Below, piece by piece: positions 3,399 through 53,784 of a stretch of DNA of 62,071 nucleotides. Below the pieces are notes generated by a model. The model made no database searches and had not been told where the DNA came from. It saw nothing but the letters and a program-made list of their open reading frames with translations. Source of the DNA: Chiloscyllium plagiosum (Eukaryota); contig NC_057735.1 of assembly GCF_004010195.1 (NCBI RefSeq), forward strand, positions 11,286,441-11,348,511, in the 5' to 3' direction. The translations under genes were made by a program, and so were the position numbers. The first letter of the stretch is position 1, and every line of letters begins with the position of its first letter.

Positions 3399-3891
3399 GG
3401 GCTGACAGCAGTTTGGAACAGTTGTTCAAATTGCTGAAAACAGGGGATAGTGAGTGGGTAGGCAGAGATAGAGAGAGTGATATTGAGAGAGATATAGAGA
3501 GATGAAGTGGGAGATGGCACAGGACAGAGCGACACTAGGCACACAGACGCACTGAGCCTTCAGTTGGTCATTTGACACACAAGATGGCTGTCAGCCTACA
3601 ATGTAGAGAGAGATGGCAGAGCAAACACAGACACTGCCTGGGGCCACCAGAATGCCAGCACAATGCATTCACAACCTGGTTGATTAGTTTAAGGCGGTTG
3701 GGGGAGAGAATACACATGACTCACGTACGCTGCCATTGAAGTGTCTGGGTCCAGCCAACACCTTTGATAGAAATGCCAACAGCTTGATACGGACTCAATA
3801 CAGAGAGCTAATAGCCAGGGCTGCAGTAATCGTCCTTCTCAGAAACACCGATTGGCACCCATGACTTCAGCAATGGACTTCCACGCAGAAA

Positions 3892-3990
3892 TTGAAACTG
3901 ACTATGTCCACACTGAAACTGACAACGATCATGCTGAAATTAACAAAGGCTGCGCTGGAACTGACAATGACTACATCGAAACTATCAAAG
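3892..3990 (+). repeat. 21-bp imperfect tandem repeat (~4.7 copies) in putative U3
   Basis: ttgaaactgactatgtccaca / ctgaaactgacaacgatcatg / ctgaaattaacaaaggctgcg / ctggaactgacaatgactaca / tcgaaactatcaaag. Confidence 0.8.
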
Positions 3991-4135
3991 ATTTTGTAAT
4001 GTTACTATAAACAACCATGTTACAATGACAACAATCTCATCACTGACCTATTGTATCACAAGATGGATAAAAATATCTTGACATGTGCTCCGAGTTGAGA
4101 GAAGACTCGCAGCTGACCACTGTGCTTTGGTCACT

Positions 4136-4449
4136 GAGCAGTTGGTCACTGCTGGATGGTTTTGTAGAAGGGGAGAGAGTCTATCTCTTTCTCCTCTTGT
4201 ATTTTTTTCTAATGTGAATTCTAGATCCTTTCTCCTGCCCTCCAGCTCTTTAACTTTCTCCTAGTCCTGTTCCACCTACTCATGGAGGCACTCACTTGTT
4301 CAATTCGACCTGCTAATTGGTGCACTAGCATTACCCCTATCTTTTTAATTTTATTCTGTTTCTGCTTATCTATCCACACTCTCTGTTGTGCTAACGTCTG
4401 GGATGGGTTTTCTTCAATTCCTTCCGTCAGCCCTTGCCTGTCTGCCTTG
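4136..4449 (-). repeat. Inverted duplicate of gag segment 5177-5497
   Basis: Base-by-base reverse complement with few substitutions; minus ORF 4221..4496 and plus ORF 5124..5405 share PSQTLAQQRVWIDKQKQNKIKKIGVMLVHQLAGRIEQVSASMSRWNRTRRKLKS. Confidence 0.97.
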
Positions 4450-4544
4450 GTGTCTTTCTCTCCCTGGAGCTCCGGTATTTCCTTGTACACTGTCACTGAA
4501 CTCTGTCACTCTGACTCCGAGGCTGGTGATTTCCCCACAACAAT

Positions 4545-4562
4545 TGGTGCTACGAACAGGGT
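4545..4562 (+). promoter_or_regulatory. Primer binding site, tRNA-Lys(UUU)-like
   Basis: TGGTGCTACGAACAGGGT, 2 nt after the LTR-terminal CA; resembles the Lys3 PBS TGGCGCCCGAACAGGGAC. Confidence 0.65.
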
Positions 4563-5123
4563 TCTTATTACCGGTGCCTTAGTCAAAGGCCACAATCGGG
4601 GAGCCAGGGTAAGAACCAAATTGTACCTGCAAACGGGAAGAGACAAACTGGGCCAAAGGCACAGTTTAAAAGGTATACCGATTGTAATGTCTAAATTGTT
4701 GCAGTACTGAGTTAAACATTTTTAAAGTGCATGTCCGTGGAGAATAAATGATAATTGCATTAACTGTTGTAAGAACCTGCTGCTTGTGCTGAAACAGCCA
4801 GAGGACAAGGTAGTGCCTGTCTCAGAGACCCTGCCCTAAACCGGTTGTTAAGAGGGGTAGGGTAAAGAGTCCCACCAATAGAGAGCACACCCTATTGAGC
4901 CAGCATTCCCAACCGACTATTACGTACCGACTAGTAATGGTGGCCGGGGGGAGGGGGGGGGGCGGGGTTAGAGAAGTCCCACCAGTAGAGAGCACACCTT
5001 GCTAGGAGGCTGCTGCAGCCATATGGATGGTGCTGGGACAGTATTGGACGGGGGTGTAGAGAAGTCCCCACTGATCAGGAACACTTTACTGTTGGTGGTA
5101 TCCAGGGGCACACAATCTGCTAA

Positions 5124-6483
5124 ATGGCAGATCAAAATTTTAAGGGGGATACTGCAGGTTCCCTTATTGAGAAATACAAGGCAGACAGACAAGGGCTGAC
5201 AGAGCAATTGAAGAAAAGTGGTTGGGACCCATCCCAGACATTAGCACAACAGAGAGTGTGGATAGATAAGCAGAAACAGAATAAAATTAAAAAGATAGGG
5301 GTAATGCTAGTGCACCAATTAGCAGGCCGAATTGAACAAGTGAGTGCCTCCATGAGTAGGTGGAACAGGACTAGGAGAAAGTTAAAGAGCAGGAGGGCAG
5401 GATAAAGGATCTAGAATTCACATTAGAAAAAAATATAAGAGGAGAAAGGGATACACTCTCCCCTTCTATAAAACCATCCAGCAGTGACCAACTGCTCCCT
5501 CTGTTGGAAAAACCATACAAGAGGATAACTTAGCGCCATTAGAGAGGAGGGACAGAATCATAGCCCAAAGCGAATTATAAACCCTTCACTCCAGGGGAAA
5601 GGTAGCAAATTATGGCCTCCCTGGGCAAATTATAGTTCTGGAGTGCAAACACCAGGGAAGGGCTGGATAGTGTATGGGTAGGGCACCAACTACACCTGAA
5701 GGACCTACACCAGCTGGTCTGGGCAGCTTGCCCAGAGGACAAGTGGAGGCAGGTAGCTGGCGGACATGATGCCACAGCAGCCCGAGACTTTAGGGGAGGA
5801 TGATGGACACATGCTGTTGCCCCCACAGCTGAGACAGATGCCCAGCAAGCTCCCTTCACCGACTTTAAAGAAGAAATCCTGAGGGTGCTAGGAAATGATC
5901 CCACAATCTGGAGCAAGTTCACGACTTAAAGGGGAGGGAGCCTCTGATTATGGGGAATGATTATTTCGGATCTATCAGGAATGTTCAGGACAAGCGAACC
6001 CAGATCGGGGGGGAATGGGCATTCATCCAAGCTTTTAATGCTGGACTCTCTAGCACCCACCAAGCCATCCTGAAAATGGTTGTAATAATGTCCCAGGATT
6101 ATGAGGACCTAGTCGAGTGGGCTAGCGGAGTGCAGGATGCAAAAGCTCCCGCAGCAAAGGCAAGACCTGACAGGGCAGCCAACCGGAATGGAGGCAAGAG
6201 GACAATAAAATGATCCTGCCACAACTGTGGCCGACAGGGGACACTTTGCTGGAGAGTTTGGGTCCCATGAGCAGGAAATAGAGCAGGGAACAATGTAAAA
6301 TACTGCAGCCACTGCAACAGAATAGGACACATTGAGGCAGTGTGCTGGGGAAAGCATGGGGCACCCCCAAACACCAGCCGGAACACCGCGGAACCGCGGG
6401 AGTCCAAGGTCAGCAGAACTGTAAACAAGCTGCCCCCATTTGTGAGGGTAAGGGAGAGGGGAGAATTTACATCCCCACAGTAA
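5124..6483 (+). pseudogene. gag: ERV gag (disrupted)
   Basis: ATG at 5124 after the PBS/leader; CCHC knuckles at ~6217 (CHNCGRQGH.., frameshifted) and 6304-6345 (CSHCNRIGHIEAVC); several stops and frameshifts. Confidence 0.85.
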
Positions 6484-9400
6484 TGGGAGGGAGGAAATGT
6501 GAAACGCTAGTAACACAGGGGCGGCTGTATCTTTGACAAGCTTACCCTTACCCCACACAACTAAAATGATTCACTTAACTGGGGTAGGTGGGGATAAAAC
6601 ACCGGCTTACCTAAGCGAAACTACCCTCAAATTTACAAGTCACCTTGAAACTATTAAAGTGGCTACAGTCACCAGTGGGGACTGGAATCTTGAAAAGGGG
6701 GGCATTCGGAGCCATCTGCGCCTCCATCCCCCGAGCATGGGCAGAAACAAAGTTAGATACAGGTCTAGTTAACTTAGACCCGATAACAGTTCCCAGACCG
6801 GAGCATAAGCCCCACCGGCAATACCCAATAAAACCCGAAGCAGAAAAAGTAGTTGTGGAGATAGTGAAAGGACTAGTGAAACAGGGAGTCCTGAAAGAAA
6901 CCACAAGTACAACTAATTCCCCGATGTGGCCAGTACTAAAGCCTGATGGGAGCTACAGGCTCACCATTGATTATACAGGGCTAAATAAGGTCACCCCTAA
7001 ATTGCACCCCATTGTAGCAGACCCCTCCACTATTTAAATGGCTTGGCCCCCCACCCGAGCAGAAGATTTTTATTGTTTTAGCCATTGCCAACAGATTCTG
7101 GTCTATCCCGTAACACCCTGAGTCCCAGAACAAATTCGCTTTTTTCAGTAAGGGGCGGGCAGTATACATGGACTCGCCTGCAACTAGGGTTCCACAACAG
7201 CTCCACTATTTTTCACAGGGTGATGAGCAGATTTACCAGAGGATAGCACTGCCCTGCAATATGTAGATGATATCCTAATTGCCTCAGAGTCCGAGTCAGG
7301 ACACCAGGAAGCTTCATGTCTAGTATTGCAGGAATTGGCAACCACAGGGTTAAAAGTTACAAGGCACAAGGGCACAAATTGGCAAAACACAAGTCTTATA
7401 CCTGGACGCCTCATATCCAGGCGACTCAAAGAAATGCCCAATGACTGTAAGGCAGCAATCCAACCGATGCCACAACCTGCCACTGTCGGGGGGAGGGGGT
7501 CAGAAAGGTCATGGGGCTATTCAACTACAGTCAGCACTTTATACCCAAATTCACAAATTGGCTGAACCAATCGAGATCTTAATTAAAGGAGGCAAACCCG
7601 CTTTGTAACCTGGGGACCAGAACAGAAGGAGGCATCCAGTCTGTTTAAAACTTGACTCATATGGATCCCAGTAAGGAATTTTACATCCCCTGTAATAATG
7701 AGGGAGGGTTTGACTCCGCAGTGATCACTCAAGACCGTAATAGCAAGAGAAGGCCCGTAGGGTACCACTCAACTACAGAACGGCCAGTAGTCACCGCATT
7801 GCCCAGGTGCACAGAGGCCTTAGACTGTGCTGCTTGGGCCATTAGGGTTAGTGAGTTCATAGTAATGACAGGAAATGTCATCCTCCACACTAAACACACC
7901 TTCGTAGAGATGCTAAACACAGGGAAACTGAGAGCTGTATCCAAAATGAGAAGGGCAAAGTGCGAGGCAGTTCTTTTACCCCCAAGTCAGTCCGTGGTAA
8001 TAGTTAGGGATACAGGAGAAAACCCAGCTAGGGGAATTCTAGACACAGGGGAACCACACAACTGTGGGGATATAGATGGAGATGAGGATGGAGGGAGAGT
8101 AAATGATACCCCCATAGACACAACCGAGGAGACCCTCTTCATTGACAGGTCACAAACATACGTAGCTGGGTCACCACGAACAGGATGGGCTGTGGTAAGT
8201 GATAAGTTAGAAACAGAGCTGAAAATGTGTTGCTGGAAAAGCGCAGCAGGTCAGGCAGCATCCAAGGACCAGGAGAATCGACGTTTCGAACATAAACCCT
8301 TCTTCAGGAACGTCGATTCTCCTGTTCCTTGGATGCTGCCTGACCTGCTGCACTTTTCCAGCAACACATTTTCAGCTCTGATCTCCAGCATCTGCAGTCC
8401 TCACTTTCTCCGATAAGTTAGAAACAGTGATGGCCAGAAGGATTGATGGAAGTCAGTCTGCACAGGTAGCAGAATTGGTAGCACTCACCAAAGCACGTGA
8501 ACTAACAAAAGGAAAAATTGTGAATATATATATATACGGACAGTCAGTATGCCTTTGGTGTAGTCCATGACTATATGGTGACATGGGGTAGAAGAGGTTC
8601 AACACCGTGGGGGGGACGTCCCTATGAGACACGAAGTAAGACTTCAGGCACTATTGCGAGCCAGGGAACAGCCAAAAGAGGCTGCAGTAATCAAATAAAA
8701 CCTCATCAAAATGAGCCAGCAAAAGAGAACCCAGGTTTGCTACAGTTCAAAGGACACCAGGCAGCAGGCCAAGCAGCTTAGAGAACCCTCGAGCAAGAAG
8801 CCATGAATGAGGCTGCAATAGCCACTATTGAATTAGCAAAAGACGCTATCCAAATTCAGCGGCTACAGGAGGACACCCCGCAGGAAAAGAGAGAACAATG
8901 GAAACTGCAGGGGGTACTCTAAGGGGAGGATAGTGGCTGGAGGGGAGCAGATAGGGTGGTAGCACCAGCCTGTATACAGAACACATTGCTTGAACTGCAC
9001 CACGGACTCTCCCATACAGGTAGAGAGGCCATGATAGCAAGCCCTGGGAGAGAGTGGTGGTGAAAGGGAATGGGAAGACATGTGGCCAAGTACTGGCACA
9101 GATGCATGGTTTGTGCACAACATAACCCAGAGAGACCCATAAAAGTTAGGATGGGACACCAGCCCAGAACTAGAGGACCCTGGGAACACTTTCAGGTGGA
9201 TTTTACAGGGCCACTATCACCTTCCCGTGGGAAAACGTACTGCCTGGTCATCATAGACCAATTCACCCGGTGGGTAAAGCATTCCCAACCAAAAGCTGCA
9301 CTGCAATCACTGTGGCCAGACTATTAGCAAAGGAGGTAATCCCGAGGTGGGGGATACCCCTCCAGATCGACTCTGACCAAGGGACACATTTTCTGGCAGG

Positions 9401-9990
9401 GTCATGAAGACTGTCTGCCAAGTACTCAGCATTAGACAACAATTTCACATTCCCTATCACCCCCAGAGCTCAGGGATGGTGGAGAGAATGAATAGAATGC
9501 TCAAAAATACTTTAGCTAAGGCTACGCAAACCTCAGGCAGAACGTGGGCCGAAGTGCTGCCAGCCAGACTAATGAGATTAAGGGCCACCACAAATCAGGC
9601 AACCGGGCCAACACCATATGAATTAATGACCCCCGGGCGAGCAATGCAATTGCCAGAGACAATAATTACTGGTGGCACCGATGTGGGTCCACTAAAAGAC
9701 AAAATTTGCCAATATGTGATAGAATTAAATGCCCAATTGAAAGGGGATGCAGAAATCTGTAATTGACAAACAGGACAAAAAGGACAGGGGAACTCCAAAT
9801 CTTCCCAGACGTCCCAGCAGCAGGAAGCCATGTCCTGGTGCGAGCATTGCCTGACAAACTAGACTTTGCCCCAAAATGGAATGGGCCATACGACGTGATA
9901 ATAAGTGGGGATACCTGGGCCTGCATAGACATTAAAGGAAAAGGCACATGAAAGCACTGGACCCAACTAAAGACTCCTGTGACCAAACTA
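6342..9990 (+). pseudogene. pol: ERV pro-pol (protease, RT, tether, RNase H, integrase), disrupted
   Basis: LV(D)TGAAVS at ~6507-6530; QYPI..NSPMWPVLKPDGSYRLTIDY; YVDD at 7260-7271; tether ~7650-7980; RNase H FIDRS..GWAVV / SAQVAELVAL / YTDSQYAFG; integrase HHCC, QVDFTGP, DSDQGTHF, SSGMVERMN, KWNGPY. Confidence 0.95.
8217..8411. mobile_element. Palindromic PLE-derived mini-element inserted in the ERV RNase H
   Basis: 16-bp TSD GATAAGTTAGAAACAG at 8201-8216 and 8412-8427; internal inverted arms; hammerhead core on minus strand at 8281-8307. Confidence 0.9.
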
Positions 9991-10150
9991 ATGTCATTGA
10001 CCATTCCCCGGGTGCAGACAGGAACAGCGGAGAAGACGGTCATCCCGGGGGGAATACAGAAAACACAACAGAACAAGCTGTACAGAGGCACAACTGCACC
10101 AACTGATGAAAACAAACACTTTGACTGTTAACTTTATTTTAACTGCAAGA

Positions 10151-11100
10151 ATGTATATACCTGTATGTATTGCACTGTGTTTAAGTGTCATGACTGTTGG
10201 GAGCATGTCAGGATTTAAAGATACCCTCTTCTATAAAACCCACCTAAGTTTCCATGGGAACCAAACTGTCTGCTACCCACTGGTGTAATCAATAGAATCC
10301 CTCGGTATACAGTAGACACCTTGGGAGTGCCGCGTAAGGGAAATACAAACGGGGACTCAAAGGTAAATGTATGCAGTTGGGCAGGATCACAGGCCCATGA
10401 GGCCAGCTCCCCCAGCCTAGGGAGGGGATTATATCTGTCATAATTATATTAAATGGCTGAGCAAACTCAAGGGGCTAAATGGCCTACTCCTGCTCCTTAT
10501 TCTTATGTTCACACGATTTTTGTATCGATGGACTGGCCCCATACAGCACTGCAGTGTTGGCTCAGACTCTCTCAGCTAATGCATCTTCTTGGGGCAGGGT
10601 GTGCTGTTCTTATCTCGGTCGGCATTTCCAGTGCAGGATTGAGGGATTGCTGCCCTATAGGATGGAGATGTAATGTTTCAGATAAAACATTAAACTCATC
10701 TACCATTTCAAGAGGCAGAGCAAGATCCCATTGCACCATTTCAAGGAAGAGCATGGGGTTTCTTCCTACTATTCTAACCAATACTTATCCCTCAGCAACA
10801 TCATTAAAACAATGGTCTGGTCAGTGACACATTGTTATTTTCTGTTGTGCGCAAGTTGGCCGATCAATTTACAATATGATATCGGAGACAGCGCTTTGTT
10901 AGTATATGGCTCTAAAACATTTTGGGACTTCTCCACTATAAGACCCTGTGCACGATGAAACTTTTTACACATAGTGCCACATCCAGGTAAAGGTTTGGAT
11001 TATATTAAACTACATCGGTGATTGAAGAAGGATCATGGAATAAAGTCATCAAACAAGGTCATCAGGAGACACTGAGGACCCATCGTATTATTGGAAATAT
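10151..11100 (+). pseudogene. Putative env 5' remnant, interrupted by repeats
   Basis: Lies just after integrase; signal-peptide-like MYIPVCIALCLSVMTVGS, sequon NQT and Cys; non-repeat sequence resumes at ~10830 (CYFLLCASWP...); no TM subunit seen. Confidence 0.45.
10545..10830 (+). mobile_element. Deu-domain SINE (SacSINE/AmnSINE-like)
   Basis: CCAGTGCAG..TGAGGGA..GCTGC..GGAG..TTTCAGAT.A.ACATTAAAC..AAGATCCCAT core; similar copies at 18250-18530, 25545-25915, 13460-13680(-), 22560-22700(-), 39860-40210(-). Confidence 0.6.
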
Positions 11101-21435: not shown

Positions 21436-21962
21436 CTTTTCCAATAGAAAAAGGACCATAATGCAATGCTTTTCCAATAGAGAAAGCACCACAATGCATT
21501 GCCTTTCCAATGGAGAAAGGACCATGATGCATTGCCTTTCCAATGAAGAAAGGACCATGATGCATTGCTTTTCCAATGGAGAAAGGACCATGATGCATTG
21601 CTTTTCCAAAGGAGAAAGGACCATGATGCAATGCTTTTCCAATTGAGAAAGGACCATGATGCAATGCTTTTCCAGTGGAGAAAGGACCATAATGCATTGC
21701 TTTATCAAAAGAAAAAGGACCATGACGCAATGCTTTTCCAATAGAGGAAGGACTGTAATGCATTGCCTTTCCAATGGAGAAAGCACCATAATGCATTGCT
21801 TTGCCAATGGAGAAAGGACCATGATGCAATGCTTTTCCAATGGAGAAAGCGCCATAATGCATTGCCTTTCCAATGGAGAAAGGACCATGATGCAATGCTT
21901 TTCCAATGGAGAAAAGACCATAATGCATTGCTTTTCAATGGAGAAAGTGCCGTAATGCAATG
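21436..21962. repeat. 33-bp minisatellite, ~16 copies
   Basis: Unit ~TTTTCCAATGGAGAAAGGACCATGATGCA(T/A)TGC; 11-aa periodic ORFs on both strands. Confidence 0.97.
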
Positions 21963-28155: not shown

Positions 28156-28226
28156 TACTCATCTGTTGCAGTGATTTACTTTATTGAGTTTTAATGCATA
28201 TTGTGTCATAATTTCTCACTGAACAG

Positions 28227-28559
28227 TTTCAGGCGCCATACTAACTGGAGCTGCTGTCATAAATGGATCAGTGGGACAATCCATTATCATCAGGTGTAAA
28301 TACAACAAACATTACAGCAGTTCTCCAAAGTACTGGTGCAAAGGTGACAACAGGGAAGACTGTGTAATTTTAGTCAAAACCCAACATTCGAGGAAGACAA
28401 ATTCTGATGGAAGAATAACCATAGAAACTGACAATGATGCAGGAGAATTCTTAGTCATGATGGACCGCTTAACAAAGAGTGACCAAGGGCTGTACTGGTG
28501 TGGAATTGCAAGGTTTTTGTGGGACTTGTTGAGTCCTGTGGAACTTAATGTTGCTGAAG
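28227..28559 (+). CDS. CD300/pIgR-like receptor gene 1, exon 2 (IgV domain)
   Basis: AG acceptor at 28225-28226, phase 1-1, GT donor at 28560; GQSIIIRCKY..KYWCKG....C..DQGLYWCG has the extra C-C' Cys pair of CD300/TREM/pIgR V domains. Confidence 0.95.
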
Positions 28560-28857
28560 GTAGGATGTTAAAAATTTTATTATTGTGCTCGTTTCCCAGC
28601 TGGATATTTGAGTTTGTTGTATGGTAGATAACATGTTTTTCAAACATTTCCACTTTTCAGTGGGCAGTTGGAAACCTAGTAAATAATGAAAAATGACACT
28701 GAGCCAAGTCTAATGGGATGTTTCTATCTCCACCCAGAGGAGTATGGGATACCCACCCAGCACAGGAACAGCAGTCTTGCCGCAATCTAGCAGCTGATTG
28801 GCCATTCATTGGGTGCATCCGGGTTCCTGGTCCAAAGAACCAAGGAATCCCTGGTCC

Positions 28858-42381: not shown

Positions 42382-42571
42382 TTCTGGATGTAGGTTTGCT
42401 CGCTGAGCTGGAAGGTTCAGTTTCAGATGTTTTGTCACCATGCTAGGTAACATCTTCAATGGGCATCCAGACGAAGCTTCATCCGAAGGCTCACTGAAGA
42501 TGTTACCCAGTACGGTGACGAAACATCTGAAAATGAACCTTTCAGCTCAGCGAGCCAACCTCCATCCAGAA
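42382..42571. mobile_element. Near-perfect 190-bp palindrome of PLE terminal repeats
   Basis: Arms mirror around GAAGCTTC (42473-42480); hammerhead core CTGAAGA-TGTTACC..GGTGAC-GAAAC at 42494-42524; same family as the 29025-29110 end. Confidence 0.85.
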
Positions 42572-48170: not shown

Positions 48171-48333
48171 AATCTAGAGTGGTCAGTTGTACAAGGTAAT
48201 GATTCTGAATGGGTGAAGTTGTTAACTCCATGCAATCTCATGATGTTGCACACTCTTGGGTACAGAATGGAAACGTTGTGCTTGAGATCGCAATGTAGTC
48301 TGACTGTGATTTCAGTTTCCTAACGCTTATTGA

Positions 48334-48724
48334 ACAAAGTTAAAAATCACACAAGATCAGGTTGTAGTCCAACAGGTTTATTTGGAAGTACTAGCTTTCA
48401 GAGCACTGCTCCTTCATCAGGTGGTTTTGGAGCAGGATCGTAATACACAGAATTTATAGCAAAAGATTACGTGTCATCAACTGAAATGGTATATTGAACA
48501 AACCTAGATTGTTAGAGCTTTGTTCAGTATACCATTTCAGTTGCATGACACTATAATCTTTTGCTATGAATTCTGTGTCTTACGATCCTGCTCCACAACT
48601 ACCCAATGAAGGAGCAGCGCTCCGAAAGCTAATGCCTCCAAATAAACCTGTTGGACTATAACCTGGTCTTGTGTGATTTTTAACTTTGTCCACCCCCATT
48701 CAACACTGGCTCCTCCACATCATG
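48334..48724. mobile_element. Palindromic PLE mini-element (~170-bp arms)
   Basis: 48334-48500 is the reverse complement of 48519-48689; 8-bp TSD GCTTATTG at 48325-48332 and 48724-48731; hammerhead core on minus at 48392-48420. Confidence 0.88.
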
Positions 48725-52995: not shown

Positions 52996-53102
52996 AAATA
53001 GTGTGGAAACCAAGAGAAGGGAATATTAATGTTAATGTCCTTTTGTTTCAATTAAGTGAAAAGTATTACATTTTAAAGTTTACTATGTTTTAACATTTAC
53101 AG

Positions 53103-53438
53103 TTACGCATGCTTCAATTAGTGGACCAGAAGAAAAAACTGGACATGTGGGAGAATCTGTCACAATCCAATGCAGATTTGACACATATTTTAGAAATTAT
53201 CAGAAGTGCTGGGGCAAAGGCTACTATAGGAGAAGCTGTACTGTTTTGGTACAAACTAATGGCCCTGAAAGGAGTAGTCATGATGGCAGAATAAGAATTA
53301 CAGCTGATAATGCAAAAGGACAACTTACAGTACTTATGTACCAGATAAGAAAAAGTGATAAAGGATGGTACTGGTGTGGAATAGATAGACCTAACCTTCT
53401 GAATCCATTAACTCCCATACAACTTAAAGTTCTTAAAG
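53103..53438 (+). CDS. CD300/pIgR-like receptor gene 2, exon 2 (IgV domain)
   Basis: TTTACAG acceptor, phase 1-1, GTAAAG donor; GESVTIQCRF..KCWGKG....C..DKGWYWCG; clear paralog of 28227-28559. Confidence 0.93.
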
Positions 53439-53784
53439 GTAAAGCGCAACATATGCTAACTGGTCTGTTTATTTTTCAACAGTATATTTTTGTTCAATAA
53501 TAAGTTGATATAAGATCCTGACTTTTCAGTAATGTATTAAAATTGTAATATTGTGAACTAGAGTAATAGCTAAAAGCAATCTGCTGCTCTTTGTTTTTTT
53601 TCTATCTAATTAGCATTTCATGTTTATCTCAGTAAACACAGCTAATTCCTCTTCATAGTTTAGTATAGAGCTATAACATCTGCATCTGCAGTCATTTTTT
53701 TTACCATGTTATCGATGGGCCAGGCCTCATGCCATTCTGTGGCAGGCTTGTACTTTACATGTTAACGATCTAGATGAAGGAACA

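Follow-up and report, generated by a model that had tools for sequence, protein, structure and literature searches.

An inverted copy of gag inside the 5' LTR of a shark endogenous retrovirus, probably a late scar of template switching

In the genome of Chiloscyllium plagiosum an endogenous retrovirus (ERV) carries a piece of gag in antisense orientation inside its 5' LTR. This raises the question whether the locus encodes a hairpin RNA that silences its own family, as proposed in an initial annotation made from the letters alone, or whether it is an assembly error or a leftover of DNA repair. We analyzed the surrounding stretch of 62,071 nucleotides (contig NC_057735.1, positions 11,286,441 to 11,348,511, forward strand), which is called the window below. 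With a probability of about 0.8 we regard the insert as a late germline copy, inverted, of the provirus's own broken gag, made by a template switch during repair or replication, and as a scar without function, not as a gene that works through a hairpin RNA. The template switching and the predicted stem of the initial interpretation hold up; the event itself would be a late chromosomal one in a broken copy, and silencing in trans finds no support.

The inverted copy and the provirus around it

A BLAST comparison of the window with itself confirms the antisense gag copy inside the 5' LTR: positions 4136-4449 (left arm, minus strand) are the reverse complement of gag 5177-5497 (right arm and donor segment, plus strand), with 300 of 324 columns identical (E 2e-138). 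The arms are spaced 727 nt apart and differ by 11 substitutions (in 311 columns) and three gaps of 2, 10 and 1 nt. Eight of the 11 substitutions fall in 4136-4405, in agreement with the eight or so that had been counted by hand over the best 270 bp.

The LTR (3503-4542, beginning with TG) belongs to a large family: a first look gave 1,143 candidates, and among the best 40 of these that were scored the closest other copy is 86% identical. All 19 other LTR copies that were fetched align at 81-86% to 3503-4131 (plus strand; U3 and the start of R) and then run straight on at 4447-4542 (plus strand; the rest of R and U5), without the insert. The inversion is thus kept in none of these 19. The same comparison sets the net insert at 4132-4446 (315 nt), with TTGGT flanking both sides. 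LTR sequence does resume behind the insert as annotated, but the exact point is 4447 instead of 4450, TTG being common with the donor. Among the best 40 of 937 candidate matches, both sides of the left junction are covered by the window locus only.

The TATA-like box annotated upstream of the insert was found as GATAAA at 4066; by motif count it is kept here and occurs in 16 of the 19 other LTRs. An AATAAA behind the insertion point is likewise present in 16/19, and is missing from the window copy. Polyadenylated reads of other LTR copies (run X21) end just behind the family AATAAA (window 4447-4489), from which the insertion point would lie within R, given that the start site follows the GATAAA box. 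By the same read ends, some other family LTRs are poly(A) sites today.

Downstream of the LTR lies a primer binding site (PBS) of the tRNA-Ser type (4545-4562, plus strand), of which 15/18 letters match the end of a tRNA-Ser gene of the same genome (median 16/18 in 24 other copies). It is followed on the plus strand by a 5' gag frame of 93 codons (5124-5405), with a premature stop at 5403 that closely follows a one-base gap near 5365, common to both arms, and by a broken pro-pol (6500-9950; RT, tether/RNase H and integrase) in many short frames. The start of the env region covers 10000-10428 (plus strand), and homology to other copies ends near 10428. The 3' LTR and the rest of env are absent from the window; the provirus ends near 10428, early in env and at a short repeat. 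A search of the genome found no duplicate of either flank that shows an empty site or the lost 3' end. In the RNase H region the provirus is interrupted by a palindromic element (8214-8411), relatives of which sit in other family copies; further small multi-copy palindromic elements of the window are located at 945-1412, 42382-42571 and 48331-48692.

Lokiretrovirus env is related to the paramyxovirus fusion protein (PF00523), and foamy-like ERVs usually have a tRNA-Lys primer site and a foamy-type env. Neither assignment fits: PF00523 matches 0 of 18 env frames from 13 copies, and a typical foamy-like ERV does not fit the tRNA-Ser PBS and the lack of the foamy env family among these 18 frames, despite an RT piece that is nearest to foamy Pol among solved structures. 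Together with the PBS and RT, the matches that the 18 env frames do give (TLV_coat in two, an Ebola-like HR1-HR2 in one) point to a class III-like ERV primed by tRNA-Ser. It has the primer type and the foamy-nearest RT in common with spuma-related ERVs of class III that use a serine PBS, for example HERV-S (PMC5210030, in the part available), whereas the env pieces of its other copies resemble neither foamy nor paramyxovirus-like envelopes. The likeness to HERV-S or to snakehead retrovirus is set by features and not by a tree that includes named viruses, and is best taken as a lead. Shark ERVs are treated in Han 2015 (PMC4422223, in the part available).

An artefact of assembly would be conceivable given the 101,977 contigs of the assembly; moreover, none of the pieces listed for the runs bridges the right junction, and run X1 is possibly the sample that was used for the assembly. 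However, the left junction is bridged in X1 by a 135-nt contig that spans 4099-4231 with one difference and has 33 letters on the LTR side. In addition, depth over the near-identical arm stretch rises to 16 in X1 (otherwise 8-11) and to 24 in X3 (otherwise 7-14), runs of two studies, which is about the doubling expected from two collapsed arm copies. The arms are furthermore 3.5% diverged, with indels and filler, so the argument from divergence made in the annotation stands. The antisense copy inside the front LTR is therefore confirmed as real as far as tested, and the probability that it is an artefact is negligible.

Donor, age and mechanism of the insert

The left arm differs from the provirus's own gag at p=0.035, against 0.103-0.191 between that gag and 28 other copies. 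Thirteen letters of the own gag are rare among the 28 copies; the arm has 10 of these 13, any other copy at most three. The one-base gap in gag is common to both arms, with extra sequence at that place in 25/28 other copies. In a tree, arm and own gag form a sister pair with a support of 0.999, though on an alignment that is poor beside the 10-nt gap: the multiple alignment misplaced letters there (p 0.058, 18 differences) and pairwise counts were used instead. These comparisons show the donor to be the same provirus's own gag, and given the frameshift gap in both arms, gag would already have been broken when it was copied.

The arms have a K of 0.036 (p 95% CI 0.018-0.062), and none of 23 family LTR pairs is as young (K 0.067-0.167, median 0.127). 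These pairs result from 43 dating tries, one provirus having been used two times; the 20 tries that yielded no pair of LTRs were left out. The pairs represent the top-scoring copies plus four pattern-picked pairs. Judged by these values the insert is younger than the provirus, made at roughly one third of the provirus's age. In absolute terms, the rate that Han 2015 assumed (PMC4422223, in the part available) translates into ~80 million years and that of the epaulette shark into ~26 million generations; as such figures depend on the rate, only relative ages are relied on.

In a related species (organism B) the provirus occupies the corresponding site, as seen from a contig across flank and LTR with 24 differences in 339. 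In two of its runs from two studies (X9 and X10), one contig per run covers the start of the arm, beginning exactly at 4136, and continues for ~200 letters past 4136 that misfit the LTR and that we infer to be gag. Compared with the arm start this contig has 10 differences and no gap, against 18 or more plus a gap in all 28 paralogues, and hence it is taken as the orthologue. Of the six private changes common to both arms in this part, the orthologous gag is without two (8 of the 10 differences were listed), so these two would have arisen after the species split and before the duplication or before the last conversion. At the orthologous locus, where the annotation had proposed to look for the inversion, organism B yields a gag contig without an LTR-joined arm in two runs, though not an identifiable empty site: contigs are better at showing presence than absence, and none could be named as an empty orthologous LTR. 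In a third species (organism C) no contig was tied to the flank of the locus.

Might the inversion instead have arisen during reverse transcription or at integration, the arms being homogenised later by gene conversion? Arm-to-arm conversion would likewise make an old event look young. The insertion point lies in R, and R is the site of strand transfer in reverse transcription. Another provirus of the family (L088, described below) has an inverted insert whose arms are 12.4% apart, much like its LTR pair (K 0.123), which demonstrates that inserts of this kind can be as old as integration. On the other hand, arms that are less diverged than the LTR pairs (0.036 against a median of 0.127) and that have private damage in common speak against fixation at integration. 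The common private letters and the differences are spread along the whole arm, so conversion would need to cover both ends exactly, and in either study of organism B the start of the arm is covered by a single contig that has no connection to the LTR. We consider an origin at integration very unlikely. The low arm K, the common private letters, the frameshift and the organism B gag without two of the changes argue for a duplication in the germline after integration.

The junctions are informative about how such a duplication could have taken place. At the left junction (4127-4151, plus strand; within the X1 contig) a TTGGT microhomology with the donor is combined with a short filler (4132-4135) and with two copies of TTGGTCACTG, at 4127 and 4142, that is at a 15-nt period. 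The short repeat had been noticed before; its two copies can be explained by a short first copy followed by re-priming 15 nt back. The right junction has TTG in common with the donor, there is almost no loss of LTR sequence and no poly(A) tail is present. The microhomology at both ends and the 15-nt re-priming slip support the template switching that was suggested from the repeat. A break or stalled fork in R of the 5' LTR may have started the event, upon which the 3' end of the minus strand would fold back, or invade the sister chromatid, and prime on a 3-nt microhomology ~730 nt away; about 320 nt of gag would then be copied with one 15-nt slip before the LTR is rejoined. The simplest route would be a break in R at which the end of the minus strand folds back on itself. 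In terms of event class this corresponds to a four-point template switch of type 1-4-3-2, to an MMBIR-like templated insertion and, in its size, distance and junctions, to a repair-mediated duplication.

The insert is ordinary in kind and belongs to a known mutation class, of which it offers a clean and datable example inside an ERV. The available text of Pace et al. 2009 (PMC2671141) describes repair-mediated duplications that interrupt transposable elements (824 cases in human, others in chicken and zebrafish, at a density of 0.2-0.65 per Mb), with a length of 50 nt or more and up to 619 nt and with donors no more than 5 kb away on the same chromosome, most often at about 1.2 kb. Here an insert of 315 nt interrupts an LTR that is contiguous in the other copies, with a donor 0.73-1.36 kb away. 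As in those cases (PMC2671141, same part), the closest copy is the proximal donor (p 0.035, against 0.103 or more elsewhere), and junctions with microhomology, filler and short deletions compare with TTGGT/TTG, the filler and the missing tail seen here. In contrast to them, the donor is the element's own gag and the copy is inverted and placed behind an LTR promoter. Judging from the junction anatomy, SDSA or a related repair pathway may have made the copy. That nearby DNA is copied in inverted orientation between microhomologies and gives a new inverted repeat also recalls the type 1-4-3-2 events of Loytynoja and Goldman 2017 (PMC5453318, in the part available). According to the available parts of PMC5453318 and PMC8421209, extra switches lead to complex junctions and template switches are present as germline variants. 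Both studies deal with events of short range, with templates within about 100 bp in PMC8421209 (in the part available), whereas the event here covers ~1.3 kb and 315 nt.

The predicted hairpin and its possible effects

For a transcript of 4080-5560, one long stem formed by the arms is predicted (-825 kcal/mol, a raw value not calibrated against shuffled sequences of such length), the longest perfect arm stretches being 86 and 63 bp. If the LTR is transcribed, a stem of ~300 bp with a loop of ~730 nt, as annotated, is thus reproduced in silico. With the TATA-like box kept and the own poly(A) signal lost, any transcript would read through the whole stem, which is itself a prediction and depends on the locus being transcribed at all. 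Masking of the 5' part of gag by the stem, another effect that had been proposed, is moot since gag was already frameshifted.

In RNA run X21, a poly(A) single-cell run of which 2% was covered (12.96 million records), no read from the window locus was found; 21 reads fall on 3990-4640, of which none is 99% alike and none lies on the arm. The test is shallow, as it comprises one sample and one poly(A) single-cell library. In another run (X22) no read aligned to the region at all, which says nothing on the locus itself. The substitutions between the arms consist of three G-U, four A-C and four transversion mismatches, next to 13 gap letters, and by side six changes fall on the LTR arm and three on the gag arm. 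The changes show no lean towards pairing, although with 11 changes this is a weak test. Neutrality of the insert is likely, as judged by these 11 changes only.

An origin as described above may be combined with transcription in some tissue, the stem being ADAR-edited or diced at a low level without a selected function. Its source could be the LTR itself, or an intron or read-through transcript of the pIgR/CD300-like cluster, same-strand exons of which are present on both sides (Ig V-type exons on the plus strand, at a distance from the provirus start of ~22 kb on the upstream side and ~24 kb on the downstream side). The predicted stem, the GATAAA that was kept, the AATAAA that was lost and the transcription of other LTR copies, visible as poly(A) ends in X21, are in line with this. 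Nevertheless the X21 records contain no read of the locus, and two inverted SINE pairs of equal size and 91-95% identity are found within 30 kb of the provirus. With such pairs nearby the stem would be one of very many and would not stand out as the ADAR or MDA5 substrate that had been suggested. Low-level transcription of this type is unlikely in our view. A striking fold within a repeat is no sign of function, and the neutral scar left by a template switch remains the preferred reading.

For silencing of the ERV family in trans, the strongest claim of the initial annotation, no support was obtained. In maize, Mu killer (PMC3440606, in the part available) and reportedly Ac killer are rearranged elements in which part of the sequence is duplicated in inverted orientation, with a predicted hairpin RNA directed at their own family. 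The inverted duplication of an element behind a promoter box (the promoter being predicted) invites the comparison with such killer loci. The shark locus as a vertebrate counterpart of Mu killer would require small RNAs from the hairpin that act on other copies. Among 294 arm 21-mers, 27% match a typical other copy with at most two mismatches; exact matches have a median of 1% and reach at most 5%. Moreover, none of the 23 dated proviruses is as young as the insert, and in a set of 27 LTRs even nearest neighbours are separated by a K of 0.066 or more, which leaves no active target in sight; the family looks to have stopped spreading before the hairpin arose, as far as the top-scoring copies and the four pattern-picked pairs can tell. 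To this are added the missing bias towards pairing and the lack of a locus read in the shallow X21 test. Mouse cells, from which sharks may differ, convert long dsRNA into siRNA inefficiently except in special settings (PMC6391682, in the part available).

Transcripts are made from Mu killer (PMC3440606, in the part available) and reportedly from Ac killer, and the DNA transposons that these plant loci silence are active and near-identical to them. The hairpin here is short, its targets are 10-19% diverged and seemingly long inactive, and no transcript of it was seen in X21. An active near-identical target at the origin, typical of killer loci, is not seen, with 0/23 LTR pairs as young as the arms. 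We regard a counterpart of Mu killer as extremely improbable. It is also very improbable that the repair slip turned a dead provirus into an LTR-driven hairpin gene, with small RNAs that damp residual transcription of the family or of a related virus circulating at the time. On ERV hairpin silencer loci of this kind only reviews were found in the literature library, to which subscription papers do not belong. If small RNAs were found, the locus would rank among the rare hairpin silencers of vertebrates that derive from a retrovirus.

Similar inserts and genomic surroundings

Inverted inserts of family sequence were found in two of 39 other proviruses screened, one or two of them similar to the window insert. 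The first (L088, G000:C5; 3581-3896 and 4906-5224) is a 316-nt inverted pol copy inserted with microhomology into gag ~1 kb upstream and, by the divergence of its arms, about as old as the integration. The second (L067, G000:C7; 5983-6076) is a 94-nt inverted pol piece, with the stretch that it matches ~340 nt away; as this template is more similar to other copies than to the insert, a self origin finds no support. Two events in the ~0.2 Mb of 39 proviruses lie above the 0.2-0.65 per Mb in the available part of PMC2671141. This genome may have a higher density of such inserts than mammalian genomes do, although the numbers are tiny and the methods differ. A further provirus (L091, G000:C25; 1850-2710 and 8635-9471) contains a large internal inversion with two LTR-plus-leader stretches in opposite orientation, 86% alike.

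A second inverted repeat of 317 nt, 28 kb upstream, was considered as a twin event and rejected, as it is a pair of SINE copies. Inverted pairs of this very common 315-nt SINE are located at 27841-28164/30047-30371 in the window (91%) and at 5572-5885/6975-7291 in the upstream stretch L110 (95%). The former flanks the V exon at 28223 in an arrangement like that of inverted Alus.

Three Ig V-type exons were found, at 28223-28627 and 53060-53500 in the window and at 1066-1377 in L109 (all plus strand). They are most like pIgR and CD300/CMRF35, and no recombination signal was found at them. By these likenesses the provirus appears to lie inside a pIgR/CD300-like cluster and shares its strand. An inverted duplicate (88%) of part of the region upstream is found ~270 kb away (L112). 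Finally, window 21436-21959 holds a tandem array of 16 copies of 33 nt that is open in three minus-strand frames, one of which gives a Colipase-like Pfam match (E 1e-11), possibly from cysteine spacing alone.
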